Shown here one piece after another: positions 12,259 to 47,278 of a stretch of DNA of 64,000 bases. Position numbers and translations under genes: made by a program. Source of the DNA: an uncultured Candidatus Saccharibacteria bacterium. GTDB lineage: Bacteria > Patescibacteriota > Saccharimonadia > Saccharimonadales > JACDBH01. The stretch covers positions 252 to 64,251 of the forward strand of contig CAYSJS010000006.1 of the NCBI GenBank assembly GCA_964431415.1. Reading direction: 5' to 3'. Within the stretch, counting starts at the first letter, position 1, and each line of letters starts with the position of its first letter. The notes under the pieces are model-generated. The model had not been told where the DNA came from. It ran no database searches and was given only the letters and a program-made list of their open reading frames with translations.

Positions 12259-12507
12259 ATGTTTTATGTATATGCAATCTTTAACAAACAAGTGGGTAAG
12301 CTGTATATTGGCCAGACGATTGATATTCGACAGCGTCTCATCGATCACAATGCGCATACTCACAAAGGCTATACGTCTCGATTCTTGGGCGAATGGGAGC
12401 TGATTTATACGGAATTCCTCCCTACTCGTACTGAAGCGCTTGTGCGAGAAAAGCAGCTAAAAAGTTTCAGAGGCAGGCAATTTGTTAAAAAATATATTCC
12501 GACTTAG
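12259..12507 (+). CDS. Small GIY-YIG nuclease superfamily protein (82 aa, UPF0213/COG2827-like)
   Basis: FYVYAIFNKQVGKLYIGQT (GIY...YIG), RLIDHN, and REKQLKSFRGRQFVKK (conserved Arg/Glu region). GGGAG Shine-Dalgarno 6 nt upstream. The stop codon TAG at 12505-12507 lies inside the tRNA. Confidence 0.8.
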   Translation: MFYVYAIFNKQVGKLYIGQTIDIRQRLIDHNAHTHKGYTSRFLGEWELIYTEFLPTRTEALVREKQLKSFRGRQFVKKYIPT

Positions 12508-12572
12508 CTCAGTGGTAGAGCGGGACGCTGTTAACGTCTAGGTCGCTGGTTCGAGCCCAGCAGTCGGAGCCA
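12498..12572 (+). tRNA. tRNA-Asn (anticodon GUU), CCA encoded
   Basis: Manual cloverleaf: acceptor TCCGACT/AGTCGGA, D arm GCTC-AGTGGTA-GAGC, anticodon arm GGACG-CTGTTAA-CGTCT, T arm GCTGG-TTCGAGC-CCAGC, discriminator G plus CCA. Confidence 0.9.
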
Positions 12573-18799: not shown

Positions 18800-18844
18800 A
18801 GTCTAGCTGTAATTACACCTATAAAACAGATATAATGGTCAGTA

Positions 18845-21800
18845 ATGGAAGAGTCAGATAATATACGAGCCATTCATGCAACATTCTCTTACGGAGTAGT
18901 TTACGTTTATTCAATCCCGGGCGATCAACATAAGGGTCGTTTGAAAATCGGTGGTGCGACTCTGACCGCAGAAAAACCTACACAGCAATCTATTGATGCA
19001 GCTGCTCACGAACGCATAAAGCAGCAAACAAAAACTGCAGACGTGCCGTATAAGCTTGAGCACGCCGAGCTGACAGTTAGCAATAATGGGACTTACTTCT
19101 CTGATTACGATGTCCACGAAATACTAAAAAGATCAGGTTACGCCCGTAAATCAGAAAACACTAAAAACGCACACTCAGAATGGTTTGAAGTTAGTTTAGA
19201 AACAGCGAAGAGTGCGATCCAAGCCGCAAAAGAAGGACGAGAGGCTCTCACTACTTTAGAAAAAACTGGAACTAACAATTTTGAGTTTCCATTCCGCCCA
19301 AATCAACGTGATGCCATAGACAAAACAACCAAAGCTATTAAGCAGCACCGCAAACATTTTCTTTGGAATGCAAAGATGCGCTTCGGAAAAACATCTGCTG
19401 CTATGCAGGTAGCCAAAGAGAATGATATGAAAAAGATTCTCATCGTTACCCACCGCCCAAGTGTTAGTGCAGACTGGTATGATGATTTTAATAGGGTTTT
19501 TGCAGGTACAAACTATGAGTATGCTTCAAAAACGAAAGGGCAACAAATAAGCACTCTCGCAAGAGGCGACAAACCCTTCGTTTACTTTGCGTCACTACAA
19601 GATTTACGTCTTTCCAAACGAGTGGTAGAGGACGAAGCTGCCCAATCTCATGCCAGAGGATTTGATAAAAATGATGAGGTATTTGATACAACCTGGGACA
19701 TGCTCATTGTCGACGAGGCACATGAAGGTACTCAAAGTAACTTGGGTGATGCTACCTTTGCAAAAATCCCCGTTAATTTCACCCTACAACTTTCAGGCAC
19801 TCCATTTAACATCCTGCACAAACACGAGGAAAATGAGATTTATACCTGGGACTACGTCATGGAGCAAGAAGAAAAGCTGCACTGGGATGAACGTCATCAA
19901 GGTGTGCCTAACCCGTATGTAGAACTTCCTGCTCTTAGTATGTTTACCTATGACATAGACAAGTTCGCTAGTCATATCGGTAGCTTGGGCGAAAACTTTC
20001 ATGACGCGCTAGATGGTGCATTTAAGTTCCACGAGTTCTTCCGCGTACACAGGGACGATGACGGAAACGAGATTGCTGAATTTGTGCATGAGCAAATGGT
20101 CAAAAAGTTTCTTGATTTGTTAGTAGATAGCTCTATTCATACCAAGTTTCCGTATTCATCAGAAGAATATCGTAATCACAATAAACACTCACTCTGGCTG
20201 TTACCTAATCGTGTCAAAGTTATTGAAGCCATGGAAAAGCTACTTAAAGATCACTGGATTTTCGGATCCAACCAATTTGGGATAGTAAATATTTCAGGTA
20301 GCAATCGTGATGATGAAGAAGACAAAGACGCAAAAGACCGAGTAACGAAAGCTATCAAAAATCATGACTATACCATTACGCTAACGGGGCAAAGATTGAC
20401 TACTGGCGCATCTGTCCCGGAGTGGACGGCCGTATTCATGCTTTCAGACACAAGTAGCGCAACTACCTACTTGCAAACAGCATTCCGTTGCCAGACGCCA
20501 GCAAAGATTGATGGCAAACTTAAAACCCAGGGTTATGTATTTGACTTTGCACCAGACCGTACACTACGACTCGTCGCAGAGGCCATTGAGCTTAATCACA
20601 AATCTGGCAAAACTAATTCACCAGAACAAAAAGAAGCGATGAAACAATTTCTAAACTTCTGCCCAATCTTGGCTGCTGAAGGTGGCACGATGAAGCCATA
20701 CGATGTAGGCACCATGTTAGTACAGCTCAAAAAAGCCATTATTGAACGTGTCAGCAGGAATGGTTTTGACGACCCTAAACTGTACAATGACGAGTTACTT
20801 CAATTAGACGAACTTGCCCTCGAAAAGTTCAATGAGCTTAAGAAAATTGTTGGCTCTGCATCTGGTGAGCGAATAAACGAGATACCCGTTAATGACTTAG
20901 GTATGGATGAACTCGAGACCGCTAAAGCCGAGGAAGCCGAGCGTAAGAAGAAAAAGAAAGAACCGCTTACTCCAGAGCAGGAAGAAGCACTTAGAAGACT
21001 AAAAGAAGCTCGCGAGCAAAAACAAAGCGCCATAAGTATACTCCGAGCTGTCAGTATACGAATGCCGATGATGGTATACGGTGCTGACGTGTCTGTACGT
21101 GAAGATATAACCTTGGAAAAATTCATTGATCTAGTCGATGAAACGTCTTGGCAAGAATTTATGCCCGAAGGTCTGACTAAAGAAAAGTTCAGAGGTTTTA
21201 TCAAATACTATGATGAAGAAGTGTTTAGTGGAGTCGCTCATAGCATACGAGCAAAAGCATATGATTATGACGAGCTTCTTCCGGCTGAACGTATTCAGGC
21301 AATTGCTAACGTGTTTGCGACATTTAAAAACCCAGACAAGGAAACAGTTCTCACTCCTTGGAATGTCGTCAATCTACAGCTGTCATCAACGTTAGGTGGT
21401 AATGATTTCAGATCGCTTGTTAAAGATAAACCCGAGTGGAAAACAGCCGGTCAAGCAACACAAATATGGTCTCAGGAAGATGCCAAAATTTTAGAAATTA
21501 ACTCAAAATCAGGACTCTATCCATTGCTTGCCGCTTATAACATTTACTCCCGGCAGCTTATCAAACACAAAAAGCCAGAGGATAAAATCCATAGGCATTT
21601 GTGGAACGAGGTTTTGTCAAAAAACATTTTTGTCATCTGTAAAACCCCTATGGCCAAGACTATTACCGAACGAACTCTTGCTGGCTATTCAAAAGTAAGC
21701 ATGAATATTGTCTATATAGAGGACTTAATAGAGAAACTACGTCAAGAAGACACATATAAGAGTTATACTCTAAGAGATGAGTTGCGTGAAAAATTCAAAG

Positions 21801-22798
21801 TTGAGGGTAGCGATATGAAGTTTTCTGCAGTCGTAGGAAATCCTCCCTACCAGGTTAATACTGACACTAATTTTTCGGTGCCGGTATATCATTTGTTTTT
21901 CAACGCTGCAAAAGATCTGGACCCAGATTATGTAAGCCTAATTCACCCTGCTAGATTCCTTTTCAACGCCGGGGCAACGCCAAAAGAGTGGAATGCTCAA
22001 ATGCTCAACGACAAACATCTGTCGGTTCCTTTATACGAGCCAGACTCTCAGAAAATATTTTCAGGAGTAGATATTAAAGGTGGTGTTTGTATAACATTCT
22101 GGGATAAGAACAATCCGAAAGGCGGTCTTGGCGGAACTTTTATAGCTTTCAAGGAATTACGCGCCATTTTGGCAAAAACTAAAACAGGTGGATTTGATCA
22201 AATTGTCGGATCGAGGGGCGGAACACGTGCTAAACGATGGCTAGATAGTTTTGATAGATACCGCTCCTATTTTCCTTCAAGTGTATTCACAACTAACGCA
22301 GACTTATTTTCCGAATCTGCAGACGACCAACATCAAATAAAGCTTGTGGGGCTGGTTAATAACAAACGCATTGAACGTTTTGTAAGCAAAGATCTCGTGG
22401 ATGATAAAGACTTACTGAAATGGAAGGTCTTTATTCCTAAGTCGAATGGTACTGGCGCAATTGGTGAAATATTAAGTACACCCCTTACGGGGGAACCCCT
22501 TACGGGGTGTACTGAGTCTTTCATCCAAATTGGCTCGTTTGACAATAAGGATGAAGCAATGAACTGTATGAACTATATCAAGACTAAGTTTTGTCGAGCT
22601 ATGCTGGGTACACTTAAGGTTACACAAGATAATCCAAAAAGTACCTGGAAGAATGTACCTCTACAAGATTTTACCAATGCTTCTGATATAAACTGGTCGG
22701 AATCAATTGAAAATATCGACAAACAGCTATACGCAAAATACGGACTTAATGAAGAAGAGGTGGCCTTCATCGAAACTCGTGTCAAAGCCATGGAGTAG
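18845..22798 (+). CDS. 1317-aa fusion: GIY-YIG-like (T5orf172-type) N-terminal domain, SF2/ResIII helicase-type ATPase, Eco57I-type N6-adenine methyltransferase domain and TaqI-C-like specificity region
   Basis: aa 15-130: GVVYVYSIPGDQHKGRLKIGGAT...HSEWFEV. Helicase motifs AKMRFGKTSAAM (I), LIVDEAHEG (II), LQLSGTPF (III), YLQTAFRCQT (VI-like). Lys/Glu coiled linker. MTase motif I-like KILEINSKSGLY and motif IV FSAVVGNPPYQ. C-terminus ends ...IDKQLYAKYGLNEEEVAFIE, typical of Eco57I/TaqI-C families. Confidence 0.75.
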   Translation: MEESDNIRAIHATFSYGVVYVYSIPGDQHKGRLKIGGATLTAEKPTQQSIDAAAHERIKQQTKTADVPYKLEHAELTVSNNGTYFSDYDVHEILKRSGYARKSENTKNAHSEWFEVSLETAKSAIQAAKEGREALTTLEKTGTNNFEFPFRPNQRDAIDKTTKAIKQHRKHFLWNAKMRFGKTSAAMQVAKENDMKKILIVTHRPSVSADWYDDFNRVFAGTNYEYASKTKGQQISTLARGDKPFVYFASLQDLRLSKRVVEDEAAQSHARGFDKNDEVFDTTWDMLIVDEAHEGTQSNLGDATFAKIPVNFTLQLSGTPFNILHKHEENEIYTWDYVMEQEEKLHWDERHQGVPNPYVELPALSMFTYDIDKFASHIGSLGENFHDALDGAFKFHEFFRVHRDDDGNEIAEFVHEQMVKKFLDLLVDSSIHTKFPYSSEEYRNHNKHSLWLLPNRVKVIEAMEKLLKDHWIFGSNQFGIVNISGSNRDDEEDKDAKDRVTKAIKNHDYTITLTGQRLTTGASVPEWTAVFMLSDTSSATTYLQTAFRCQTPAKIDGKLKTQGYVFDFAPDRTLRLVAEAIELNHKSGKTNSPEQKEAMKQFLNFCPILAAEGGTMKPYDVGTMLVQLKKAIIERVSRNGFDDPKLYNDELLQLDELALEKFNELKKIVGSASGERINEIPVNDLGMDELETAKAEEAERKKKKKEPLTPEQEEALRRLKEAREQKQSAISILRAVSIRMPMMVYGADVSVREDITLEKFIDLVDETSWQEFMPEGLTKEKFRGFIKYYDEEVFSGVAHSIRAKAYDYDELLPAERIQAIANVFATFKNPDKETVLTPWNVVNLQLSSTLGGNDFRSLVKDKPEWKTAGQATQIWSQEDAKILEINSKSGLYPLLAAYNIYSRQLIKHKKPEDKIHRHLWNEVLSKNIFVICKTPMAKTITERTLAGYSKVSMNIVYIEDLIEKLRQEDTYKSYTLRDELREKFKVEGSDMKFSAVVGNPPYQVNTDTNFSVPVYHLFFNAAKDLDPDYVSLIHPARFLFNAGATPKEWNAQMLNDKHLSVPLYEPDSQKIFSGVDIKGGVCITFWDKNNPKGGLGGTFIAFKELRAILAKTKTGGFDQIVGSRGGTRAKRWLDSFDRYRSYFPSSVFTTNADLFSESADDQHQIKLVGLVNNKRIERFVSKDLVDDKDLLKWKVFIPKSNGTGAIGEILSTPLTGEPLTGCTESFIQIGSFDNKDEAMNCMNYIKTKFCRAMLGTLKVTQDNPKSTWKNVPLQDFTNASDINWSESIENIDKQLYAKYGLNEEEVAFIETRVKAME

Positions 22799-22801
22799 CC
22801 C

Positions 22802-23737
22802 ATGGTACCACGTACAGACATCGATATCCTAGAAAATAATCTTCGTCGCAAGGGCGACTTATTAGACATTTTGCTAGTAGATCGCACAACTGGAAAGAAT
22901 CTCCTGTGGGGCACGGATTCTTATTCTGGTAACGGCAAAGTATTTGGCTCAAAAAGCCGCATGCAGCCGGACTTAGTAACAGGCCTTTATGGTAAGCTCA
23001 TCCAGCCTCGCGCAGCCAAGAGTCGCGATGAGCAGCTTCGCCGTACGAAAGAAAAAGCTGAAGTATTCACACCACTCCGCATAGTACATGAAATTAATAG
23101 TACTGTTGATAGAGCTGCTGGCGCAAAACTTGTTAGCGGACACACATGGCAAGACTATGTGTCAGAACTAAAACTAGAAATTGCGTGTGGTGAAGCACCG
23201 TTTATTGTAAGTCGCTATAACCCTGTTGCACATGGTGTTATTATCAAGCTTGAAAACCGCGTAGGATTTTTAGACCAAAAGTTACGTGTTGTATCACACT
23301 ATTGCGATAAACCTAAAGATTGGCTGAAGTGGGCGAAGATTGCTTTTCAGAGTTCTTATGGATACGAATGGCAGGGCGACAACTTACTAATAGCTCGTGA
23401 AAATCTGTTATACACACTCATTGACTACTATAAGGATAAGTTCGGTCGCCGACCATCGCTATCAATTCAACAAGAGTTTGCAGAGATTATAAGTTGGAAT
23501 ATCTGGCAAATGGACGGCGTTAAATACGTCGTACCGATGAGCTGTAAGCACATAAACAGAGTTATACCTGGCGAACTTACGCTATTCGGCGAAACCCCTG
23601 ACATAGTCGAAAAAGATGAATGCGAGGGTTGTAAGTTTAACCGTCCCAAAAAGCATAATGGCCGTTATGCTCGTGTTATGGATTGGAAAACTGGTAAGTC
23701 GATAAAGTTTGTTGAGCTAGTTTCGCAGCTCGTTTGA
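22802..23737 (+). CDS. 311-aa methyltransferase-fold protein with motifs X and I but no recognisable motif IV (NPPY)
   Basis: KEKAEVFTPLRIVHEIN (motif X-like xxFTP), LEIACGEAPFIV (motif I-like ACGxxxF), SYGYEWQGDNLLIARENL (motif II/III-like), IISWNIWQMDG, a C-terminal Cys pair (CEGC), and no [DNS]PP[YFW]. Starts 4 nt after the 1317-aa gene. Confidence 0.55.
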   Translation: MVPRTDIDILENNLRRKGDLLDILLVDRTTGKNLLWGTDSYSGNGKVFGSKSRMQPDLVTGLYGKLIQPRAAKSRDEQLRRTKEKAEVFTPLRIVHEINSTVDRAAGAKLVSGHTWQDYVSELKLEIACGEAPFIVSRYNPVAHGVIIKLENRVGFLDQKLRVVSHYCDKPKDWLKWAKIAFQSSYGYEWQGDNLLIARENLLYTLIDYYKDKFGRRPSLSIQQEFAEIISWNIWQMDGVKYVVPMSCKHINRVIPGELTLFGETPDIVEKDECEGCKFNRPKKHNGRYARVMDWKTGKSIKFVELVSQLV

Positions 23738-36843: not shown

Positions 36844-37764
36844 ATGATACGGATATATTTTAGCAATCGTAACGCGAAAATGAGCGAACTCAAAGAGCCG
36901 CGCAACGGTTGTTTGGTATATGTCGAAAATCCAACTGAAAACGAGCTGACTACGCTTGCGAACGGGCACGGGCTCGATATCGATCTTTTGCGTGACGGCC
37001 TGGACCAAAACGAGGCGCCGCGTATAGACACCTGGGCTGAGCGTACATATATTTTTACACGGTTTGTGCTGCCGGAGTCCGAAAAGCAAACCACGAGCCC
37101 CGTTCTTATTATCTATGGACTATCGATGGTGTATGTGGTGAGCCGTGAACCATTTGCCGAGCTGCAAAAAATTATTAGAAAAACAGGGATAACTACAACA
37201 AAACGTACCCAGGTAATGCTGCAGATACTTAACCAGATAAATGCCGGCTATAAGAGCCGCATCAACAGTGTGGCAAAGCGTATGTGGTCGGTTCGGTCAC
37301 AGCTTAACAAAGCGCACATCGACAACAAGGACTTTATTCACTTCATCGACATGGAAGAAGATCTAAACGACTTTTTGTCGGCGCTTGAACCGATGAATAC
37401 CCAGCTTAACTATCTGCTTACCGGTAAATATATAAAACTATACGAAGACGACAAGGACCTGATAGAAGATGTCGAATTGGGCAGCCACGAGCTCATTAGT
37501 CTTGCCAATAGCCAGCTTAAAACAATCCGCAATATCCGTGAGGCGTATAGCACGATTACGGCAAATAATTTAAACAAAGTCTTTAAGCTGATGACGAGCA
37601 TTACTATACTCATGGGTATTTTTACGCTTATAACCGGTATATACAGCATGAACATCGCACTGCCGGCGGCGCACAACCCAAACGCTTTTTGGATAATCAT
37701 CGGTATCACCACCACGCTTATTACGGTCGTATCACTTATGTTTAAAAAGAAGCGGTGGTTTTAA
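36844..37764 (+). CDS. CorA-family divalent cation transporter with the variant pore motif YSMN
   Basis: CorA-like soluble domain plus 2 C-terminal TM helices. ITGIYSMNIALP sits where CorA has YGMNF. An alternative start exists at 36880 (MSELKEP). Confidence 0.7.
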   Translation: MIRIYFSNRNAKMSELKEPRNGCLVYVENPTENELTTLANGHGLDIDLLRDGLDQNEAPRIDTWAERTYIFTRFVLPESEKQTTSPVLIIYGLSMVYVVSREPFAELQKIIRKTGITTTKRTQVMLQILNQINAGYKSRINSVAKRMWSVRSQLNKAHIDNKDFIHFIDMEEDLNDFLSALEPMNTQLNYLLTGKYIKLYEDDKDLIEDVELGSHELISLANSQLKTIRNIREAYSTITANNLNKVFKLMTSITILMGIFTLITGIYSMNIALPAAHNPNAFWIIIGITTTLITVVSLMFKKKRWF

Positions 37765-37767
37765 TCT

Positions 37768-38607
37768 ATGTGGCCTATAATCCAAGCGATTATTCTAGGG
37801 ATTGTTGAAGGTTTTACGGAATTTTTGCCCATTTCTAGCACCGGGCACTTGATCGTAGCGCAGGACTTGATTGGGTATAAAGACACGGCTGAGCTTTTTA
37901 CCGTTGTTATACAAGTGGGTGCGATTGCTGCGGTAATGTGGCACTACCGCGGGGATCTGTTTAAAAGAATTTCAGCATTATTTAGCGGTAAAAAAGGTAG
38001 TGTTCGTTTTTGGCTCAACCTCGTTATTGCGGTTATTCCGGCAGGGTTGGTTGGGGTATTGTTTGACTCGTCAGTGCAGAAGTATTCACGTCCAAGTACC
38101 ATCGCCATTGCCTTAATACTGGGCGGATTTGTCCTGTGGTTTGTAGAAGACAAAAGACAACGCTCAGAAGCGGACAGGCCGCGGCAGATGAACAGGCACT
38201 CCGAAGCAGCGCTGGATGCCATTACTTCCAAACAAGCGCTCGGCGTTGGTGTGGCGCAGGTGTTCTCGCTTGTGCCGGGCGTATCACGTTCTGGCTCCAC
38301 AATTGTCGGTGGCTTGGTTGCTGGGCTAGACCGGGTTACGGCAACGGCATTTTCGTTTTACTTAAGCATCCCGGTGATGATACTCGCTTCCGGGTATAAG
38401 ATCATTAAAGAAAGAAGCGTTATCTCCCAGCTTCCCGGAGGTAGTCCGGCCCTTATCGCCGGAACGGTCACGGCATTTATTACGGCGCTTTTTGCGGTTT
38501 CTTGGCTGCTTAGCTATGTTTCTCGTCACACGTTTAAAAGTTTTGCGTATTACCGGGTAGTGTTTGGGGTTGTCATTCTTTTCCTGCTCGCCGTAAACAT
38601 ACTGTAA
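37768..38607 (+). CDS. uppP: Undecaprenyl-diphosphate phosphatase
   Basis: EGFTEFLPISSTGHL and PGVSRSGSTI motifs, 8 TM segments. Confidence 0.9.
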   Translation: MWPIIQAIILGIVEGFTEFLPISSTGHLIVAQDLIGYKDTAELFTVVIQVGAIAAVMWHYRGDLFKRISALFSGKKGSVRFWLNLVIAVIPAGLVGVLFDSSVQKYSRPSTIAIALILGGFVLWFVEDKRQRSEADRPRQMNRHSEAALDAITSKQALGVGVAQVFSLVPGVSRSGSTIVGGLVAGLDRVTATAFSFYLSIPVMILASGYKIIKERSVISQLPGGSPALIAGTVTAFITALFAVSWLLSYVSRHTFKSFAYYRVVFGVVILFLLAVNIL

Positions 38608-38689
38608 AACGCGGTTTTCTTAACAACGGTACCGGCCAGAGAGGTGAGCTTTTATTACGCTATAGGTTGTGGAAAAACAGTGCAAATTA

Positions 38690-38900
38690 CACTACGGGTA
38701 GCGGTTAAGCGCCGTGCTACACTGGGAGTACTTAACAATCAAAGCTGGAATCTGGTGTAAATCCAGAACTGTGCCGCAACGGTAATCTATCGAGGAAAAA
38801 ATAGAGAGTCCGATCTAGCTACTTTTAAGACTTCCGAGCAGGAGCATTGAGTCATATGATTTTACAGCCTGCACCCGGAAGTCACCCGAGCAGGTTTTTT
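38690..38900 (+). promoter_or_regulatory. Structured 5' leader with a cobalamin-riboswitch-like core
   Basis: 38741-38786 AAAGCTGGAATCTGGTGTAAATCCAGAACTGTGCCGCAACGGTAA resembles the conserved core AAGGGAA..GGUG..AAUCC....C.G..CCCGC.ACUGUAA. Downstream, CTTCCGAGCAGG (38831-42) and CCTGCACCCGGAAG (38868-81) can pair, as an alternative to CCTGC/GCAGG plus TTTTTT, which abuts the ATG. Confidence 0.4.
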
Positions 38901-38902
38901 AT

Positions 38903-40222
38903 ATGTCTGAATTAGTTATCAATGATCATAGAAGTGAGGGCCGAAAGATATTTGATATGTCCTCAAGTGTCATGTTGCTGCGACATGACCTAGAGCAAAA
39001 TGGGGCTGTGCATCCCGAAACGGTACAGCGTGTTTTTGATGAGGAAATGACATATTTAGCTGAAGGCGTGAATCGATCTTTATATACTAAATTTGAGCTT
39101 AAGCCCGTAGACGGCAGGCTCGCGTACTTTGATAAAGGCAGGTGGCGACCATATGTTGGAACACTTGAGAGGGCGGTTGGAGTTGCTCGCGCCGACGCCT
39201 CGAAAGACTATCGAAAAGAGTTTTTAGTGGATATGTGCGTTACTGATCTAACGATTGGTCTTACGCTCGAGAGGCTTGAAAGGGGTAAAAAATTTAGTTG
39301 GTTTTCGCCATATCCTCGAGTTATTGAAGAAAGATATGGAAAAGAATTCGTAGGTGATAGTGGCTTCCAGCCTGAGCGTGCAATGGGGTTTTTATATCAA
39401 GCGACAAAGAATTTAGACGGGAGCTTAACACTCGAAACTCAGTCGGTCGACAATAGTGACGACGAAGCTTTCAAATGTGCTATGTATGAGGCGGATCAAG
39501 CAGAACAGAAAACTATTAGTGATATGCGCGCCGCATATGATAGGACGCTAGCGGAAAAGTATGGCGGAATTTATTTTGCTGGCAGAAAAGTGAGACCAGG
39601 CATGAAAAATGAAAACGCATGGGATTTGATCAGAGAACACTCTGACTTGCTTAACTATTTCATGCAAGGCATACAAGACTTAGCAGCCGCCTTTCATCTT
39701 GACAAGGAACAGGTTGAGACTGAAAAGAAGTTACTGACGTATGGTGTGTGGGCGGCGCTGAAGCAAAGGCTTGACGCTTCAAAGCTGCCAGCAGGACAGC
39801 GTGGCGCAACAGTTGGATATCCTGTGGAGTATATACATTTAGAGGTCCAACAAGCCTTTAGAGAATATAGCGAAAGAGGCGAAGTCCTCGTGGGGTGCGG
39901 AGGCTCGATCAAGGGCGTTCGTGACGCTATCAGAGACAGTGATCCGCAAGACGTATTTAATGATATTTTCGGTGAGGATGGTAAGGATAAGTGGGTATGG
40001 AAAAAAGGTGTGTGTCGGGTTGACGCTTGTCCAACTCGTCCTGGGCAAACAGAGGTTGGGCCCTGTGCGGTGTGCAGGAACTGTCAGCACTGGTTTGATA
40101 AAGGGCACGACCCGCAAAAACTGTATCGCGGTTTACGGCTTGCTGCTCAAGATGCGGTTACGACAAAGACAAAGAACAACAGCAAGACAACAAAGGTAAA
40201 AAAGAAAGTTGAAACAGTATGA
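38903..40222 (+). CDS. Hypothetical protein (439 aa) with a C-terminal Cys cluster (zinc-ribbon-like) and a Lys-rich tail
   Basis: Long ORF ending in CRVDACPTRPGQTEVGPCAVCRNCQHW. No family recognised. Confidence 0.6.
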   Translation: MSELVINDHRSEGRKIFDMSSSVMLLRHDLEQNGAVHPETVQRVFDEEMTYLAEGVNRSLYTKFELKPVDGRLAYFDKGRWRPYVGTLERAVGVARADASKDYRKEFLVDMCVTDLTIGLTLERLERGKKFSWFSPYPRVIEERYGKEFVGDSGFQPERAMGFLYQATKNLDGSLTLETQSVDNSDDEAFKCAMYEADQAEQKTISDMRAAYDRTLAEKYGGIYFAGRKVRPGMKNENAWDLIREHSDLLNYFMQGIQDLAAAFHLDKEQVETEKKLLTYGVWAALKQRLDASKLPAGQRGATVGYPVEYIHLEVQQAFREYSERGEVLVGCGGSIKGVRDAIRDSDPQDVFNDIFGEDGKDKWVWKKGVCRVDACPTRPGQTEVGPCAVCRNCQHWFDKGHDPQKLYRGLRLAAQDAVTTKTKNNSKTTKVKKKVETV

Positions 40223-40419
40223 GCGGGCTAACAAAAGAGCAATACGAAAAGCAGGCAGCGCAGTGTGACGGACTGTGTGAAGTACCCGTGTCGTCACAGC
40301 AGGAAGCTGCCAGTGAGCTGCCCTGCGTGAAGTGCCCTTTTTGTCATGAGATAGTAACGGCCCGGCTGACGCCTACGACCATTAGCTGCCCGGCATGCAA
40401 AATAACCGTTTCGAGGTAA
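40219..40419 (+). CDS. Zinc-ribbon mini-protein (66 aa)
   Basis: CVKCPFC...CPAC. Its start overlaps the upstream stop (ATGA). Confidence 0.5.
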   Translation: MSGLTKEQYEKQAAQCDGLCEVPVSSQQEAASELPCVKCPFCHEIVTARLTPTTISCPACKITVSR

Positions 40420-40428
40420 ACTACTATA

Positions 40429-40599
40429 ATGGCATCCGAAGAAGAAACGATATATCAGGAAATGGTGAAAGAAAAGTCTCCAGAATTTTACTGCGACAAC
40501 TGCGACTTTTACCCCATCGTTCCGGTCCACGGGCATTTTGAATGTCCGCAGTGCCACTACAAAAGCAAATGCTGCGAAGGAATGGCGCTGGATGCGTAG
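40429..40599 (+). CDS. Zinc-ribbon mini-protein (56 aa), below the size cutoff of the ORF track
   Basis: Manual translation: MASEEETIYQEMVKEKSPEFYCDNCDFYPIVPVHGHFECPQCHYKSKCCEGMALDA*. The last 11 codons form repeat copy 1. Confidence 0.4.
   Translation: MASEEETIYQEMVKEKSPEFYCDNCDFYPIVPVHGHFECPQCHYKSKCCEGMALDA
40567..40599 (+). repeat. 33-bp perfect direct repeat, copy 1 (AAATGCTGCGAAGGAATGGCGCTGGATGCGTAG)
   Basis: Identical to 40783-40815. Confidence 0.9.
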
Positions 40600-40782
40600 C
40601 ATGTACTGTCTTTGGGGAGAGCAGCCCGAGCAATCCGGCCTTGCCGGTTCTCGGCGCGATGAGAGGGTGAAAAATGCCAGTGGCATTTTGCAAGGCCGCA
40701 GCCGCGACGGTGGCGAGGAGGGCCCGACCAAGTTTTCAGCAGAAAACTACGGGTGGGTTTCCCCCTCTCATAAGCGAAGCGA
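40600..40782. other. GC-rich 183-nt multi-hairpin element between the 33-bp repeats (candidate structured RNA or small inserted element)
   Basis: Closing helix ATGAGAGGG (40660-40668)/CCCTCTCAT (40764-40772). Internal hairpins: CCGAG..CCGGC-CTT-GCCGG..CTCGG, AAAATGCC-AGT-GGCATTTT, AGTTTTC-AGCA-GAAAACT. Overlapping ORFs occur in several frames, which is typical of non-coding GC-rich DNA. Confidence 0.3.
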
Positions 40783-40815
40783 AAATGCTGCGAAGGAATG
40801 GCGCTGGATGCGTAG
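40783..40815 (+). repeat. 33-bp perfect direct repeat, copy 2
   Basis: Identical to 40567-40599. Confidence 0.9.
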
Positions 40816-40875
40816 ACATCAAGTAACACGTATCAAATATCATGTATCAAATAGTAAATATCAGGCATTTTCTTC

Positions 40876-41469
40876 ATGAAGCGTATTGGTATACTTGCCG
40901 GCACGTTTGACCCGGTGCATAAGGGGCACCTGAGTTTTGCGATGCAAGCAGCCGAAAAAGCAGGGCTTGATGCGGTGTATCTAATCCCCGAACCGAAACC
41001 ACGGTACAAAGGCGATACAACCCACATTAGCCACCGAACGGCCATGCTTCACTTAGCGGTTGAAGGCTATTCAAAAATAAAAGTATTAGAACTGCCGGAC
41101 AAACAGTTTTTAGTTGCTACTACCTTGCCGCGGCTTAAACAACAATTTCCCAATACGGAGCTAGTCATGCTTGTAGGCATAGATGTACTTGCCCACATGT
41201 CGGTGTGGCCGCACATACGCACTCTTTTAAAGGACATGGGCCTGGTGGTTGCTGTTCGGGGCGACAAAGACGAGCGGCATGCCTTTCAGCTGCTGGCTCG
41301 TTTGCCGGTTGAGCCACGCGAAGCGCATGTGCTGATAAGCAATTATAAAATGGTTGCCGCACGCGAGATCCGTAGCGCCTTAAAGACTAAAAGTGAGCCT
41401 GAGGGCATGCTTGGAAGCGTAAAAAAGTACATAAAAGATAACTGGCTCTACCAAGGAATCATTAAGTAG
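40876..41469 (+). CDS. nadD: Nicotinate-nucleotide adenylyltransferase
   Basis: GILAGTFDPVHKGHL (the HxGH-type motif of cytidylyltransferase-fold NMNAT/NaMNAT enzymes), 197 aa. Confidence 0.8.
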   Translation: MKRIGILAGTFDPVHKGHLSFAMQAAEKAGLDAVYLIPEPKPRYKGDTTHISHRTAMLHLAVEGYSKIKVLELPDKQFLVATTLPRLKQQFPNTELVMLVGIDVLAHMSVWPHIRTLLKDMGLVVAVRGDKDERHAFQLLARLPVEPREAHVLISNYKMVAAREIRSALKTKSEPEGMLGSVKKYIKDNWLYQGIIK

Positions 41470-41474
41470 AGTTT

Positions 41475-43172
41475 TCAGGATTCGCTTGAACCGGCAAAAA
41501 GGTCATAGTGTGACTGCAGATATGCCAGATGTTTTTCGCGGTATTTTTTAAATTCAGTTTTATTGAAACCGTTCTTTTTTATAAAAGAGCCAATTTTCTC
41601 TGAGCCGATGTAATGCGGCAAGATAACGTATGCAACTCCTTTACCATACAGCTCGGCTGCTTCTTCGCTCGTGTCGGCGGTAGCGATAAAAACCGCTTTA
41701 GGATTGTTTTTCTCCAGCCACTCAGCAAGGAGAGTGTTGGTGTTCATGTCGGTTATTGTGGATACCACCAGCCGAGACTTTTCGAGGTTCAACTCTTCTA
41801 GTAGCTCCGGATCAGTGACATCGCCGTACAGGTATTCGGCTCCCTGGTTTTCCAGACTGTCAATAATGATTGGATCGTAATCTACTACTACGTAGCGTTT
41901 CTTGAGCTGCTTGAATACCTTTAAAAACTCTCTGCCGCCTTTTTGGTAGCCTATAAGTACAAGCTCGTAGTTGCGGCGTATTTCCCGGGACTCTTTAGCC
42001 TTTCTCTGCTCAAACAATTCGAGGTATTTTTCAAAAAATATGTACAGTTTGTCTGAGTAGATAATTAGGTATGTCGAAATACCTATAGTTAGTAAGCCGA
42101 CCACGGTCATAAGCGACAAAACCTCCTGCGAAACATGGCCCAACTTATTTGCAAGCAGCAAAAGGATAAGCGAGAATTCGCTTACCTGTGTGCCCAGTAG
42201 ACCGGTTTTAAAGCTTGTTTTCTTTGTGTAGCCGCTCAGGCCCATAATGGTCATCACAATAAGCGGGTTGCCAAACAGGACCAAAACCGAAAGGATGGCG
42301 GCCTTTGGCATGATGCTCCACAAGTTATGGAGTTCCAGGTGTGAGCCAAGGCCTATAAAGAAAAGCACGATAAAGAAATCTCGCAGAATTTTGAGCCGAG
42401 AGGCTATTTCCTGTGCGTAAGGGAGGGAGGCAAGGGTGACTCCGGCAATAAGGGCGCCGATCTCTAGACTAAAACCGGCATTCTGAAACAGAGAAGCGAT
42501 GCCTAAGGCCCAGCCGATTGCAAACAAAAAAAGGAACTCCTGAGACTTGGCAATAATGCTCCCCATACGATTGATTATAAAAACACGCACGAGGACGATG
42601 CCGGTTATGAGGCCAATGCATTTCAGTATAAGACCGGCGAAGTCCGAAAATGTTACGCCGCCGCTCCCGGATGCCGAAACGGCGACCAGAAGAATGGTGG
42701 CAACCAGGTCCTCGGCAAGAAGGAAGCCGATAGATATCTTGCCGTATAATCTCGACTGTTCCTTTTTATCACTCAGAAGCTTGAGGATGATGATGGTACT
42801 AGAAAACGAGAGAGCTACACCAATAAGCAGCGAGGGGACAATCTCATATCCAAACAGCCGCGATACAGCAAAGCCAAATAGCGTAGTGATGCCAATCTTG
42901 CCGACGGCAATAATACCGGCAATTTTTCCCACTTCCTTAATAACACGCGGATTAAGGCCTAAGCCCACGATAAGTAACAGAAGGGCGATGCCGAAGTCAG
43001 AAAAAACCTGGATAGTTTCCGGCGACTTAATAAGGTGCAGAAGTGAAGGGCCCACCAGAAGACCTGTCAGTATATGTCCGATTATAAGCGGCTGGCGGAT
43101 AATTCGCATAAACAAGCTCACCAAAACGGCAACCGTTATTACTAGACTGAGCTCGGCGAAAATACTGTGCAT
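41475..43172 (-). CDS. Monovalent cation:proton antiporter (CPA2/Kef-type) with a C-terminal TrkA-N/RCK domain
   Basis: About 11 TM Na+/H+ exchanger-like region followed by LVLIGYQKGGREF...VVVDYD (a Rossmann-type RCK domain). Confidence 0.85.
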   Translation of the reverse strand: MHSIFAELSLVITVAVLVSLFMRIIRQPLIIGHILTGLLVGPSLLHLIKSPETIQVFSDFGIALLLLIVGLGLNPRVIKEVGKIAGIIAVGKIGITTLFGFAVSRLFGYEIVPSLLIGVALSFSSTIIILKLLSDKKEQSRLYGKISIGFLLAEDLVATILLVAVSASGSGGVTFSDFAGLILKCIGLITGIVLVRVFIINRMGSIIAKSQEFLFLFAIGWALGIASLFQNAGFSLEIGALIAGVTLASLPYAQEIASRLKILRDFFIVLFFIGLGSHLELHNLWSIMPKAAILSVLVLFGNPLIVMTIMGLSGYTKKTSFKTGLLGTQVSEFSLILLLLANKLGHVSQEVLSLMTVVGLLTIGISTYLIIYSDKLYIFFEKYLELFEQRKAKESREIRRNYELVLIGYQKGGREFLKVFKQLKKRYVVVDYDPIIIDSLENQGAEYLYGDVTDPELLEELNLEKSRLVVSTITDMNTNTLLAEWLEKNNPKAVFIATADTSEEAAELYGKGVAYVILPHYIGSEKIGSFIKKNGFNKTEFKKYREKHLAYLQSHYDLFAGSSES

Positions 43173-43247
43173 GCGACTTTTCCTTCGTTCCTCTTATTCT
43201 ATATTAGGATAAGCGTAATACGCAAAGATTGGTGCTATGATGGATGC

Positions 43248-43673
43248 ATGAAAGAGCCATTTCGCCGTTTTTCTTCGAGGGTGTCCAGTGCGGCAGGAAA
43301 TGCCTATGCCTTCTTCTTTGCAGTTTGTCTGGTTATTTTTTGGGCACTCAGTGGCTTTCCGTTTCACTTTTCGAACACGTGGCAGCTTTTTATAAATACC
43401 ACGACAACTATCGGCACTTTTTTAATGGTGTTCTTGATTCAAAACACTCAGAACCGCGAAACCAAAGCAACCCAACTCAAGCTAGACGAACTAATTCGGG
43501 CAACAAATGCACGGGATAGTTTTATTGACATCGAGGACCTTACCGATTCCGAGCTAGAGGCAATTAACCAGTATTTTATAGAGATGCATGAACATTTGAG
43601 CAGGCCAGGCATGGATAAGCTGCATCAAAAAATACAGCTCGCTCACCATCGCCGCCAAAAAAGTAAGCAGTAA
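43248..43673 (+). CDS. Low-affinity iron permease family protein
   Basis: FSNTWQLFINTTTTIGTFLMVFLIQNTQNRETKATQLKLDELIRA matches that family. Start trimmed to the ATG at 43248. Confidence 0.65.
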   Translation: MKEPFRRFSSRVSSAAGNAYAFFFAVCLVIFWALSGFPFHFSNTWQLFINTTTTIGTFLMVFLIQNTQNRETKATQLKLDELIRATNARDSFIDIEDLTDSELEAINQYFIEMHEHLSRPGMDKLHQKIQLAHHRRQKSKQ

Positions 43674-43695
43674 ACAAGTTTTTTGATCAATTTGC

Positions 43696-43725
43696 TTGAC
43701 ATCAAGCATAAGCTTTCTATATAGT
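43696..43725 (+). promoter_or_regulatory. Strong-looking orphan promoter (TTGACA-18 nt-TATAGT)
   Basis: TTGACA at 43696-43701 and TATAGT at 43720-43725. No annotated gene lies downstream for about 300 nt. Confidence 0.4.
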
Positions 43726-44034
43726 ACGCAGCATATCTGAAGAGTGGCATGCGAGAGCCCCTGCTCGGAAAAATAAAAATTAAAAAAATAAATCAGTAAA
43801 ACGCGATAGGCAAAAATAGCCCGTGTGGTTTTAGTGGTTTTTGGAGTGACAGAAATGCCAATAAAAGTACGAATAGTTAAGAGCCGGCCAAGTATGGTTG
43901 CCGTCAGGATCAAGCGAGCACCCTGGCAGGAGTTTATACACTACTAAAGTGAGATGTAACTTCTTAGGATACGAGTTCGCGTTTTCCCGTTAGTTCTTTT
44001 TTGTGTTATTTTGAGTTTATTTATTCTAAACAAT

Positions 44035-44664
44035 CTATTTTGCAGCACTGATAGCGTCTTCAATGAGCTTTGCAAAAGAAGCCTCATCGTTCGGCGTATC
44101 AACAACCTTACCATTCAGGACAAAGGTAGGTGTACCAGTAAGACCAAGCTTTTGGCCTTCTTTTATGTCGGCGTTAATTACGTCGTTAACCGCTGCACTT
44201 TTATAGTCGTCGGTGAACTTAGTCGTGTCACTAATACCGATCTGGGTGGCATAGTTTGTGAATAGTGTCAGTGGGTCGCTGGTTGACTTCCATGAGTCCT
44301 GATTAGTATATAGAGAAGAGTACATCTCCCAGAATTTACCCTGAAGATGTGCGGCCTCAGCTGCGCGGGATGCCGCTCTGGCGTTTTGGTGCAGGGATTC
44401 GAGCGGGAAATTGCGGAACTGGAAGGTGATATCGGCTTTATGGGCGTCTACCACGCGTTCAACAATGGGGAAATAAACGGCACATGCCGGACATTGGAAG
44501 TCACCGTATTCTACCAAAGTTACTTTTTTAGCGCCTTCGCCTTTTACGTGGTCACTCGCAGCCGGACTTGAGCTTGAAGTGTCTTCGGCTGGCTTTGTGA
44601 GCCACATAAAACCTGCAGCGACCACGATGATTGCAAACACAATACCTACAAAACGTTTATTCAT
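44035..44664 (-). CDS. DsbA-family thiol:disulfide oxidoreductase, membrane anchored
   Basis: N-terminal TM helix, a thioredoxin-fold CPAC active site, and DsbA-like helical insertion motifs. Confidence 0.8.
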   Translation of the reverse strand: MNKRFVGIVFAIIVVAAGFMWLTKPAEDTSSSSPAASDHVKGEGAKKVTLVEYGDFQCPACAVYFPIVERVVDAHKADITFQFRNFPLESLHQNARAASRAAEAAHLQGKFWEMYSSLYTNQDSWKSTSDPLTLFTNYATQIGISDTTKFTDDYKSAAVNDVINADIKEGQKLGLTGTPTFVLNGKVVDTPNDEASFAKLIEDAISAAK

Positions 44665-44793
44665 GAATCTCCCCTTGATTTGTTACTCTATAATAATAGA
44701 TTTAAGCTCTAAAGGCCATCTTTGATTTAAGGCAGTAAACCATGTGGACATGCATCATCACGGATAGGGCACAGTGGTGCTACAATTATAGCC

Positions 44794-45774
44794 ATGAGCA
44801 TCTTAATTATTATCGGACTGCTTAGTGTATCGGCGTGTCTGAGTGCAATGGTGGCTGCGTTTCAAACCCTTTCTGCGTCGCATCTAAAGTACTGGGCCCG
44901 GAAAAAGGATCCCAGTGCACTCAAACTATACCCGCTCAAGGCGCGAGGTGCGGCAACATATCTTATGCTTGAGATTTTAAGAGCATTAGCTGTTGGCGGT
45001 ACTTTTGTATATATAGCATCACATATGAATGTTTGGTTTGCCTGGTTGATTAGTACGGTACTATTTTTTGTTGCATTTATTGTGCTTACCCAGTTATATC
45101 TCAAGCCGTATGGCATGCGCTTGCTCATTTTGCTGAGCAGGCCATTGCTGGCTTTAACGAATGCCTTAAAGCCACTCACTTTGCCGCTTGGGCATGTTTT
45201 TGACGAATATATGGAGCAAGAACCCGTAACCCTAACGCGTTATGATCTTGAGGCGATGCTTAAATCGGTGGAACCGGACGATACGGACTTGAGTTCAGAA
45301 GAAATACGCATTCTTTCTGGCGTGCTCAGCTATTCGCATAAATCAGTCCACGATGTCATGATACCCAAATCAAAAGTAGTTACCGTAAAGGCAACCGAAG
45401 CGCTGACACCAGTGGTAATTGATGAGTTATATAAAACAGGTCATGCGCGCTTCCCGGTGCTGGGCGAAGATGGCAAGTCGGTGGTGGGAATCTTGCATAT
45501 ACATGACATTATGAATGTAAAGACTCCCGGCAGTGTCGAAGAAGCAATGCAGGCACGCGTTAACTATGTGGACGAAGACCGAGGATTGGATCATGTACTC
45601 CAAACCTTTTATACAACTAAGCAATCGGTTTTTGTGGTCCACAATCAGGCGAGTAACATGGTAGGTCTCATCAGTGTCGAAGATGTCCTTCAGCAAATTC
45701 TCGGTAAGCCGTATCAGCACCCGGTAGACTCTCCTGAAGAGACAGTACCGCCAGAGCCAAAGATAAAGGATTAG
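44794..45774 (+). CDS. CNNM/DUF21 transmembrane domain plus CBS-pair protein (CorC/HlyC-like, lacking the C-terminal CorC domain)
   Basis: 4-TM DUF21-like N-terminus, then VHDVMIPKSKVV...ARFPVLGEDGKSVVGILHIHD...LISVEDVLQQILG CBS repeats. Confidence 0.75.
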   Translation: MSILIIIGLLSVSACLSAMVAAFQTLSASHLKYWARKKDPSALKLYPLKARGAATYLMLEILRALAVGGTFVYIASHMNVWFAWLISTVLFFVAFIVLTQLYLKPYGMRLLILLSRPLLALTNALKPLTLPLGHVFDEYMEQEPVTLTRYDLEAMLKSVEPDDTDLSSEEIRILSGVLSYSHKSVHDVMIPKSKVVTVKATEALTPVVIDELYKTGHARFPVLGEDGKSVVGILHIHDIMNVKTPGSVEEAMQARVNYVDEDRGLDHVLQTFYTTKQSVFVVHNQASNMVGLISVEDVLQQILGKPYQHPVDSPEETVPPEPKIKD

Positions 45775-45967
45775 TTCAGCCTAAAAAGTTTGACATGTAC
45801 GGTGGTTGGGGAAAATAGCAGCACATGCTAAAATTACCTCTGTAATGTTTTGGCTAAAAGATAATAACGTAAATCTACGGGCTGGCAAGTAAACGCCGGT
45901 TTGATTTACTCTGCCTATAGCCCGGGAGCCAAAAACCACTTTAGCAAAGAAATAACTAGGAATTATT

Positions 45968-47278
45968 ATGGAACGAACATTAAGTAAAGAAGTGGCACAG
46001 CATATCGGCGCAAGCGTAATGATAGAGGGCTGGCTACATAAAAAACGCCTACTGGGCGGTCTGAGTTTTATTTTGGTACGCGACCGCAAAGGGGTGACTC
46101 AGGTAGTGGTTGAAGATAAAGACGAGGTTGAAAAACTCCGTGCACTGCAAATCGGCACGGTGCTTCGGGTTGAAGGCAATGTCGTGGCCGAAGAGCGTGC
46201 CCCGGGCGGCGCCGAAATTCACGATGCAAAACTTAACGTCTTGGTACCGGTGCTAGATGTGCCGCCGATAGAAATCGACAAACCGTTAGACCATAAACCC
46301 GAGAACTTAGACACGTTACTAGACAACCGTGTAGTGGGGCTTCGGAACCTGCGAGAAACGGCTATCTTTAAGATTCAGGACCGAGTACTCGAAGGTGCGC
46401 GTCGATATTTTTATCAAAATGGTTTCACTGAAATGAAAACTCCAAAGCTTCTTGCAAAGCCGACTGAAGGCGGAGCCGAGGTGTTTATGTTAGATTATTT
46501 TGGCAAAACGGCCAGCTTGGCGCAAAGCGCGCAGTTTTATAAGCAAATAATGGTTGGTGTGTTTGAGCGTGTGTTCGAGATGGGCGGTACATACCGAGCC
46601 GAGCCGAGTTCAACAACGCGGCATATGACTGAATATGTGACGATTGACTGTGAGATGGGCTTCATAACATTCGACGAACTGCGCGAGTTTGCGCACGGAC
46701 TTCTAAAGTCGGTTGTAGACTTTGTTTGGGAAGAATGTCCTGATGAAGTAAGAATGTGGAACTTGCAAAAACCGCTCCTTTCCGACAAAGCGGTTTCGCT
46801 CACCATGGCTGAAGTACATGAATTGTTTGAAAAAGCTAACAACACAACCGTAGAGGATAAAAAGGATTTAACGCCATCCGAAGAAAAGTGGATTTGCGAA
46901 TACGCCAAAAAGAACCTCGGCACTGAAGCGGTATTTGTGACCGAATGGCCTGCAAGTTCGATGAAGTTTTACCATAAAAAGACCGAAGGCAATGAAGAGA
47001 TGTGCGACCGAAGCGACTTCTTGTTCCGTGGTGTCGAAATCATGACTTGCCCAATGCGCGAAAACCGGTATGACGTTTTAATTCAGCAGATGAAAGATCA
47101 AGGACTCGATGAAACCGAAGAGGGGTATCAAGCGTACTTAAGTGCCTTCAAATTTGGCCTGCCGCCGCATGGTGGTTTCGGACTCGGCATGGAACGCTTA
47201 ACACAAAGAATCCTTGGACTGAATAACGTTAAAGAAGCCACACTCTTCCCGCGTGACATTAACCGCCTCGCCCCATGA
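45968..47278 (+). CDS. aspS: Aspartate--tRNA ligase, archaeal/eukaryotic type (class IIb)
   Basis: OB-fold N-terminus, motif 2 YRAEPSSTTRHMTEY, and C-terminal GLPPHGGFGLGMERL...LFPRDINRLAP (FPRDxxRLxP is typical of type-2 AspRS). Confidence 0.75.
   Translation: MERTLSKEVAQHIGASVMIEGWLHKKRLLGGLSFILVRDRKGVTQVVVEDKDEVEKLRALQIGTVLRVEGNVVAEERAPGGAEIHDAKLNVLVPVLDVPPIEIDKPLDHKPENLDTLLDNRVVGLRNLRETAIFKIQDRVLEGARRYFYQNGFTEMKTPKLLAKPTEGGAEVFMLDYFGKTASLAQSAQFYKQIMVGVFERVFEMGGTYRAEPSSTTRHMTEYVTIDCEMGFITFDELREFAHGLLKSVVDFVWEECPDEVRMWNLQKPLLSDKAVSLTMAEVHELFEKANNTTVEDKKDLTPSEEKWICEYAKKNLGTEAVFVTEWPASSMKFYHKKTEGNEEMCDRSDFLFRGVEIMTCPMRENRYDVLIQQMKDQGLDETEEGYQAYLSAFKFGLPPHGGFGLGMERLTQRILGLNNVKEATLFPRDINRLAP

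Follow-up and report, generated by a model that had tools for sequence, protein, structure and literature searches.

Genes and features at the locus

The stretch of DNA analysed in this study, called the window throughout, comprises 64,000 nucleotides of contig CAYSJS010000006.1 (positions 252 to 64,251 of the forward strand; GenBank assembly GCA_964431415.1) from an uncultured Candidatus Saccharibacteria bacterium. The analysis concerns the leader of a gene encoding a 439-aa protein (c0), which is followed by genes for two zinc-ribbon mini-proteins. We conclude, with a probability of roughly 85%, that this leader (38724–38902) is a real cobalamin riboswitch, its functional stretch being 38731–38900. 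It is a compact class-II-like variant inside the known cobalamin clan that is marginal in Rfam, and it belongs to a subtype that is specific to Saccharibacteria/Patescibacteria and found throughout Saccharibacteria. The conclusion is carried by a covariance model and a sequence profile of the family, by covariation among related leaders, and by the alternative helices between the aptamer and the start codon. The features of the leader and the operon are the following (SD, Shine-Dalgarno; ORF, open reading frame).

38685–38703, + strand: degenerate copy of a conserved promoter-proximal motif (family consensus AAAATACTAYATSTAGCGT), from the alignment of upstream regions
38715–38723, + strand: extended -10-like box TGCTACACT (TGnTAnAnT/TATAAT-like), located 7–12 nt before the 5' arm of P1 in nearly all leaders
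38731–38829, + strand: cobalamin aptamer; local match to RF00174, 103 bits with the family covariance model R1, leave-one-out nhmmer E = 7.3e-24, covariation in P3, P4, and P6
38731–38735 / 38825–38829, + strand: helix P1
38736–38743, + strand: junction J1/3
38744–38747 / 38816–38819, + strand: helix P3, with one G-U pair
38751–38767, + strand: P4 hairpin, loop UGUAAAU
38770–38778, + strand: P5/L5, L5 being UGCCG
38780–38782 / 38810–38812, + strand: helix P6, with an inserted hairpin at 38786–38805
38806–38819, + strand: B12-box homolog GAGUCCGAUCUAGC, containing the 3' strand of P6, J6/3, and the 3' strand of P3; family consensus AAGUCCGAUACAGC
38831–38844, + strand: P13-like hairpin CUUC-CGAGCA-GGAG, 4 bp, one nt 3' of P1
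38868–38883, + strand: switching segment CCUGCACCCGGAAGUC, pairing with 38829–38842 (antiterminator) or, by CCUGC, with 38890–38894 (terminator)
38868–38900, + strand: terminator/SD-sequestering hairpin, CCUGC (38868–38872)/GCAGG (38890–38894), −9.8 kcal/mol, U6 at 38895–38900
38903–40222, + strand: ORF of the 439-aa protein c0; alpha/beta body, invariant GCGG loop (residues 331–334), C-terminal Cys-cluster zinc ribbon
40219–40419, + strand: 66-aa zinc-ribbon mini-protein, its start overlapping the c0 stop codon (ATGA)
40429–40599, + strand: 56-aa Cys-rich mini-protein (CxxC...CPxC...KCCEG), 9 nt after the 66-aa gene

Detection of the leader

The whole window was scanned with Rfam at the gathering thresholds, and positions 38500–39000 (501 nt) were scanned permissively. 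The whole-window scan returned no riboswitch, and its sole match was a tRNA at 12498–12569. In the permissive scan, RF00174 (Cobalamin) was aligned with 38748–38845 (+) at 26.5 bits and E = 6.9e-5 (about 0.01 when rescaled arithmetically to 64 kb) over model positions 48–166 of 189, and two weaker matches to other families of the clan overlapped it. The near-match to the cobalamin core that an earlier note, made from the letters of the window, had reported from 38741 onwards is real. The strings quoted in that note were located where it had placed them, save that the one starting at 38741 ends at 38785 and not at 38786. Taken alone, the RF00174 match is only suggestive, as it lies below the gathering score.

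The models built from the family gave higher scores. A nhmmer profile from which the window had been left out matched it at 38728–38845 with E = 7.3e-24, the only significant match in 64 kb; the second match, at 38863–38894, was insignificant (E = 3.1). R1 scored 38724–38846 at 103 bits, which is mid-range among the scores of the family.

Comparison of related leaders

The species genomes of GTDB were scanned with the 439-aa protein, which resulted in 23 loci (numbered with the prefix L); 22 of them had upstream DNA, and 19 were scanned with Rfam. In 7 of the 19, the DNA immediately 5' of the gene for the homolog had a cobalamin-clan match at or above the gathering score: to RF01689 in L010, L011, and L012 (38–44 bits) and to RF00174 in L001, L002, L009, and L015 (32–34 bits). 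The RF00174 scores hover around the gathering threshold (26.5–33.6 bits). The covariance-model check proposed in the earlier note was thus positive for these orthologous leaders and gave a low E-value in the window, but the window itself stayed below the threshold.

With R1, the leader was present in all 22 loci with upstream DNA. The scores were 79–116 bits in 21 of them, while L023 received 51.7 bits and its match was split by a 174-nt insert in P6. The seed of R1 did not include L002, L003, L007, L014, and L023; the first four scored 94, 82.6, 78.9, and 86.8 bits, respectively. R1 also matched three synteny-orthologous loci, L144–L146, at 80–84 bits, so the leader is retained there although the protein is only 27% identical to that of the window.

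Covariation was assessed in an alignment of 79 distinct leaders (A2), and the earlier note's proposal that homologs of c0 share a covarying leader was borne out. The helices were paired in 99.2% of the cells (85.7% in column shuffles), and 9 of the 18 pairs had changes on both sides. The covariation score was 0.372, compared with 0.113 in shuffles and at most 0.098 in slid controls. The signal was strong in P3, P4, P6, and the downstream hairpin. The compensatory changes included GCUG/CAGC to ACCG/CGGU in P3, changes in four of the five P4 pairs, and G-C to U-A in P6 of nine sequences; a swap of U-A to A-U was seen by eye in P5 of L003. Membership in the family, conservation, and covariation are established by these results.

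Anatomy of the aptamer

The aptamer is a four-way junction of P3, P4, P5, and P6 closed by P1, in which the core nucleotides are kept, and it bears the canonical nucleotides of L4, L5, and the B12 box. The insert in L6 of the window is a hairpin of 5 bp with a 10-nt loop (38786–38805). The insert is shorter than 10 nt in 14 of the 95 matched leaders and measures 2 nt in the examples L010, L011, L012, and L055.

The earlier note had found no convincing B12 box and had regarded AGTCCGATCTAGCT (38807–38820) as only a partial match. This doubt was unfounded: the segment is the true homolog of AAGUCCGAUACAGC, the family variant, which is one position shorter than the B12-box consensus AGYCMGGAGACCKGCC. 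Rfam places its B12 box on the homologous AAGYCMGAYACRG in L002, L009, and L015, and RF01689 aligns J6/3 and the 3' strand of P3 to the B12-box homolog in L010. In the window and L001, the local optimum of Rfam slips to the look-alike CCGAGCAGGAG. The window has a GAUCU(A/G)GC variant of the box in common with L144.

Promoter-side DNA

The extended -10-like box suggests that transcription probably starts at about 38729–38732, the RNA beginning with P1. The promoter-proximal motif AAAATACTAYATSTAGCGT lies 11–13 nt upstream of a -10-like box of the form TGCTAYACT, often followed by ACTACTAGAT, and it is conserved in most leaders (about 70 related loci). In 0.9 Mb of loci, 66 of the 71 occurrences of ACTAYATNTAGYG were upstream of this riboswitch, and of the remaining five, no fewer than two (those in L014 and L146) likewise stand before riboswitches. 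This near-exclusive position suggests a dedicated operator or an unusual promoter, either of which would mean a second, protein-based layer of control.

The copy of the motif at 38685–38703 overlaps the first 6 nt (38698–38703) of GGTAGCGGTTAAGC (38698–38711), which the earlier note had likened to a segment of an adenosylcobalamin (AdoCbl) riboswitch. As GGTAGCGGTTAAGC is matched by no RNA model and lies upstream of TGCTACACT, it is probably promoter or operator DNA and not RNA. The upstream motif overlapping GGTAGCGG was also considered as the P1/P2 helices of a class-I riboswitch. This was rejected, since the Rfam alignment in that region is full of non-canonical pairs, the variants are uncompensated, and the -10-like box lies downstream. 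In the aligned leaders, no consistent covariation or compensation between the motif and the downstream sequence was seen by eye.

Expression platform and proposed switch

The earlier note had described mutually exclusive pairings between the aptamer and the start codon, and the folding results agree with it. The platform at 38829–38905 folds at −26.3 kcal/mol, compared with −13.0 ± 2.4 kcal/mol for shuffles (z = −5.7), and its minimum free energy structure is the antiterminator helix of 38829–38842 with 38868–38883, which takes up the final P1 base as well as the conserved hairpin in full. The competing hairpin, CCUGC/GCAGG, is followed by U6 and then AU-AUG, so that the U-run stops 2 nt short of the ATG.

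Across the family, the P13-like stem covaries (CUCC/GGAG, CUCU/AGAG, CUUC/GAAG; 31 and 5 double changes) and is paired in 99.7% of cases, and its loop CGAGCA is invariant in the 22 loci recovered by protein homology. A terminator-like hairpin with a U-run was present in 87 of 128 related platforms, and in the examples displayed the start codon lies a few nt 3' of it. In these 128 platforms, the duplex between the P13 segment and the 5' arm of the terminator had a mean of −8.4 kcal/mol (−5.4 kcal/mol in shuffles), and 56% of the duplexes reached −8 kcal/mol or lower, compared with 6% of the shuffles. The alternative helices are established in this way. The sole SD-like AGGG/GAGG is usually placed on the 3' arm of the terminator in the family examples, so that the hairpin is able to end transcription as well as to cover the ribosome-binding site.

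The terminator region TACAGCCTGCACCCGGAAGTCACCCGAGCAGG (38863–38894) weakly re-matches the segment of the family profile that runs from the 3' part of the B12 box into the hairpin, and CCGAGCAGG occurs twice, at 38834–38842 and 38886–38894. The 3' arm of the terminator resembles a duplicate of the hairpin segment, as a three-element switch would have.

In the class-II riboswitch env8HyCbl, cobalamin binding stabilises a kissing loop between L5 and L13, and L13 has to be presented by a stem-loop; cobalamin kissing loops always hold at least one unpaired nucleotide (PMC5028336). By analogy, we infer that the CGAGCA loop is the L13 partner of L5 UGCCG, with CG(A)GCA forming five pairs around one bulged A. 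The geometry of this candidate (one bulge, L13 in a stem-loop) agrees with the rules in PMC5028336.

In the proposed switch, bound cobalamin would bring the CGAGCA loop to kiss L5 and lock the hairpin at 38831–38844. The locked hairpin would preclude the antiterminator and free CCUGC...CGGAAGUC (38868–38883) for the terminator/SD-sequestering hairpin with GCAGG and U6; transcription would then stop 2 nt before the ATG, or initiation would be blocked, and the operon would be OFF. When cobalamin is absent, the hairpin would melt into the far more stable antiterminator (38829–38842/38868–38883), and the 439-aa protein would be expressed together with the 66-aa and 56-aa zinc-ribbon mini-proteins. 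Class-II members range from methylcobalamin- to AdoCbl-selective, which is set by the variable J1/3 (PMC6158498), and the form of the ligand is therefore not predictable from the sequence.

Weighing of the evidence

Several points weigh against a functional cobalamin riboswitch in the window. The RF00174 score of the window (26.5 bits) is below the gathering score of 31.5, and 47 model positions at the 5' end (1–47) and 23 at the 3' end (167–189) are unmatched. Folded by itself, the aptamer is no more stable than its shuffles (z = 0.01). Of the 79 leaders in A2, 58 were obtained from metagenomes with a pattern that fixes GATACAGC and CGAGCA, and the invariance there is inflated; the covarying positions outside the fixed pattern are P4, the middle pair of P6, and the YY/RR pairs of P13. 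L5 and L13 are both invariant, and hence the kissing loop has no covariation signal. With 5 bp and a loop of 17 nt, the terminator of the window is a weak one, and a consensus terminator scan did not report it. A simple sigma-70 scan found no -35/-10 pair in 38550–38950, and the consensus promoter/terminator scan was empty. As for the cargo, c0 shows no demonstrable tie to B12 chemistry, and neither a B12-dependent enzyme (Pfam, 20 large ORFs of the window) nor a B12 transporter was found in the 64 kb.

Three other explanations of the leader were weighed. The one that survives best keeps the cobalamin fold and changes the ligand (a specific cobamide, a corrinoid precursor, or a non-corrinoid) or limits the control to translation or mRNA stability. 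Class-II selectivity is wide and dependent on J1/3 (PMC6158498), the B12-box variant is without the consensus GG..CC, the terminator of the window is weak, and the cargo is no recognisable B12 gene, all of which would suit it. We consider it quite improbable, as the core nucleotides of L4, L5, P6, and J6/3 agree with the consensus of RF00174 and RF01689, the regulon includes a gene with the transcobalamin-like domain DUF4430 (see below), and a hairpin with a U-run is the rule across the family.

The copy in the window could also be a decaying relic that no longer switches, with constitutive expression of the operon. Its Rfam score is of the lowest tier, its B12 box has two substitutions (GAUCUAGC vs GAUACAGC), and a weak terminator faces a very stable antiterminator. 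Decay is nevertheless very improbable: every modelled helix still pairs, and the only change in P3 is from G-C to G-U; L5, L13, P4, and P6 are intact, the score with the family covariance model is mid-range, and the GAUCU(A/G)GC variant is kept in L144 too. If the AT-rich leader resembled the cobalamin consensus by chance, with no riboswitch at all, the sub-threshold Rfam score and the missing thermodynamic signal of the aptamer would be explained, but this reading is refuted by conservation and covariation over more than 100 loci, the leave-one-out profile (E = 7.3e-24), and the results of the family covariance model.

Regulated operon and its proteins

The genes of c0 and the 66-aa and 56-aa proteins constitute a single operon downstream of the cobalamin riboswitch, with translational coupling or tight spacing between them. 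Its position directly downstream of a family riboswitch speaks for the suggestion of the earlier note that the three proteins are new members of a cobalamin-responsive regulon. None of the roles that the note proposed for them (uptake, binding, or a B12-independent substitute activity) was confirmed.

Homologs of c0 numbered 69 in a word-indexed search, all hypothetical proteins from Saccharibacteria/Patescibacteria, and an exhaustive profile search gave 318 representatives of 50%-identity clusters. No match to c0 was obtained in Pfam, NCBIfam, PADLOC, or PDB sequence profiles. A confident AlphaFold (AF2) model from 43 homologs (predicted local distance difference test score, pLDDT, 85.9) has an alpha/beta body, a disordered GCGG loop, and a C-terminal zinc ribbon; when it was compared with PDB and BFVD by Foldseek, only noise was obtained. 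The sequence has neither a signal peptide nor a hydrophobic segment. We regard c0 as a cytoplasmic, fast-diverging zinc-ribbon protein that would be made when B12 is limiting.

The 66-aa protein has counterparts in L001 and L144–L146 (52–61% identity). Of the 23 genome loci, 12 encode the 56-aa protein downstream of c0, and one more shows part of it where the contig ends. The copy in L144 has 80% identity, compared with only 27% for c0 at that locus. A homolog search with it returned seven close relatives, all unnamed. In Pfam, NCBIfam, and PADLOC, neither the two mini-proteins nor nine divergent variants of the cassette had a match above noise.

The 56-aa gene ends in 33 nt (...KCCEGMALDA*; 40567–40599) that recur without a mismatch 216 nt downstream, at 40783–40815. 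The 183-nt insert between the copies (40600–40782) includes a GC-rich hairpin at about 40625–40655 and a degenerate second stretch coding for VHGHFECPQ (40677–40701 vs 40527–40551, 80% identity), and part of it is matched at 75–81% in L113 and L007. The region 40567–40815 may have arisen by partial duplication or by a small insertion, and nadD lies just after it. A scan of the gap at 40560–40900 by Rfam E-value was empty.

Cassette exchange behind the riboswitch

The window and L144 have a common gene order: uppP, riboswitch, cargo, 66-aa gene, 56-aa gene, nadD, antiporter. The neighbouring proteins are 61–80% identical, whereas the cargos (439 aa in the window, 553 aa at 3001–4662 in L144) are 27% identical, with the C-terminal zinc ribbon nearly unchanged. 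Among 48 loci, pairs with NadD proteins 70–89% identical mostly have cargos with no or marginal BLASTP similarity. The DNA of L045 and L076 is 78–94% identical up to and through the riboswitch, shows no identity over the coding cassette, and becomes similar again right after it; the same pattern of flank identity and cassette replacement was observed in L051/L140 and L026/L104. The cargo variants have only their architecture in common: each has the body, a Cys motif rich in Gly, and a zinc ribbon, of which there are at least three types, and bodies and zinc ribbons recombine among them. Distant bodies are still homologous by profile comparison (94% probability).

The order of genes at 36844–47278 is kept in many Saccharimonadia loci (L144–L146, L015, L022, and others): uppP, the riboswitch with cargo and mini-genes, a nadD-like gene, a K+/H+ antiporter gene (−), and, further on, CNNM/CBS and Asp/Asn-tRNA synthetase genes. 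The nadD gene adjoins the cassette in at least 54 loci. A functional tie between nadD and the riboswitch was considered and set aside in favour of conserved synteny, as the order of uppP, nadD, the antiporter, and other genes is maintained.

Other genes in the riboswitch slot

A metagenome scan for the signature running from the B12 box to the hairpin yielded at least 120 loci. Among the matches listed, the first readable ORF belonged to one BLAST-linked superfamily (350–600 aa, including c0) in 94 of 111; when all loci were counted, this superfamily occupied the slot behind the riboswitch in at least 117. In L007, L014, L035, and L118, the first genes after the same riboswitch encode a DUF4430 protein and a DUF6580 membrane protein (2730–3664 in L007, 2979–3910 in L014), and in three of the four a superfamily gene follows. 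Transcobalamins have DUF4430 as their C-terminal domain (PMC4350170), and the best PDB sequence match of the DUF4430 protein was transcobalamin-1, although weak. This domain is the sole direct tie of the regulon to cobalamin handling, and the DUF4430 and DUF6580 proteins may together take up cobamides in Saccharibacteria. By sequence, the DUF6580 protein has no solved relative, and a literature search on DUF6580 gave nothing relevant. In the window, neither DUF4430 nor DUF6580 was found by tblastn.

In L093, L101, L105, and L142, the slot is filled by a family of highly acidic proteins of 440–546 aa with an amphipathic or hydrophobic C-terminal tail. By hhalign, this family is unrelated to the usual cargo (probability 0.1).

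Possible role and significance

The pattern of cassettes fits diversifying selection on a protein with variable partners. A classical B12-independent isozyme is less likely, because cassette exchange is unlike a housekeeping enzyme; a B12-independent substitute enzyme is an unlikely role for the cargo. Acquisition or handling of cobamides that come from the host is a possible one and our best specific guess, and some other function in B12 limitation or host interaction may have nearly an even chance. We tentatively propose that the riboswitch marks a "B12-starvation slot", in which the promoter motif, the riboswitch, the mini-genes, and nadD are kept, while the first cassette (new fold, Gly-Cys loop, interchangeable zinc ribbons) is swapped between strains for highly divergent members of a single lineage-specific superfamily; it might serve as a diversifying, host-facing system for obtaining or processing host cobamides or for answering B12 scarcity. 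If true, this would be a type of B12-regulon member without a described counterpart.

The Saccharibacteria (TM7) are extremely small bacteria that depend on a host and are nearly devoid of biosynthesis. A lineage-wide B12 riboswitch would imply that they sense B12 and that their intracellular cobamide level is regulated. Literature searches on cobalamin riboswitches or ribonucleotide reductase in Saccharibacteria or the candidate phyla radiation (CPR) yielded no relevant result. The chief points are a riboswitch conserved across Saccharibacteria and a controlled gene that is swapped as a cassette. With about 120 nt of RNA and a single operon, there is a concrete handle on how B12 is acquired from hosts or used, and the exchange of a cargo superfamily that has no known relative or fold points toward selection for diversity. 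As the subtype scores at or below the Rfam threshold, riboswitches of this kind are likely under-annotated in CPR genomes.

Other features of the window

A large serine recombinase gene (Resolvase/Recombinase/Zn_ribbon_recom) is located at 17492–18799 (−). It adjoins a 1317-aa fusion of an Eco57I-type methylase, ResIII, and T5orf172 (18845–22798) and an unannotated 311-aa ORF; 17492–23737 is likely a mobile defence island. A 2038-aa ORF occupies 5904–12020 (−).

Comparison with known systems

The closest architecture is that of RF01689 (class II, "AdoCbl-variant/AdoCbl-II"), of which env8HyCbl is the model member. In both, P1 closes the P3–P6 four-way junction without a large peripheral domain, J1/3 is about 8 nt long, L4 is GUGnAAnUC, P6 is CGG/CCG with an L6 of the UnAAAGU type, J6/3 and the 3' strand of P3 make up the B12-box equivalent, and a short regulatory hairpin is placed just 3' of P1. 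The members with a minimal L6 (L010, L011, L012) pass RF01689 at 38–44 bits. In RF01689, P6 is a short hairpin whose 7-nt L6 is free of insertions, whereas most members of the present family, including the window, have an L6 hairpin of 10–30 nt. Unlike in class II, the proposed L13 of the family (CGAGCA) has no ribosome-binding site, and the hairpin is an antiterminator arm coupled to a terminator/SD-sequestering hairpin; the sequences of L5 and L13 also differ from those of env8.

With RF00174, represented by btuB of E. coli, the family has in common the core GGAA-P4-CUG-L5-GCAACGGUAA and a B12 box that is aligned by the model; we infer that both also use OFF logic over B12-related genes. The family differs from RF00174 in that it has neither the 5' extension P1-P2 nor a multi-helix P6 domain, its P6 insert being a single hairpin.

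The PPE proteins are a polymorphic, lineage-specific family. In Mycobacterium tuberculosis, a B12 riboswitch upstream of ppe2 is reported to control this gene of uncertain function (PMC11260477), and the leader described here likewise stands over a gene of uncertain function. The proteins are unrelated and the riboswitch architecture is different, and in Saccharibacteria the cassette is exchanged between near-identical flanks.

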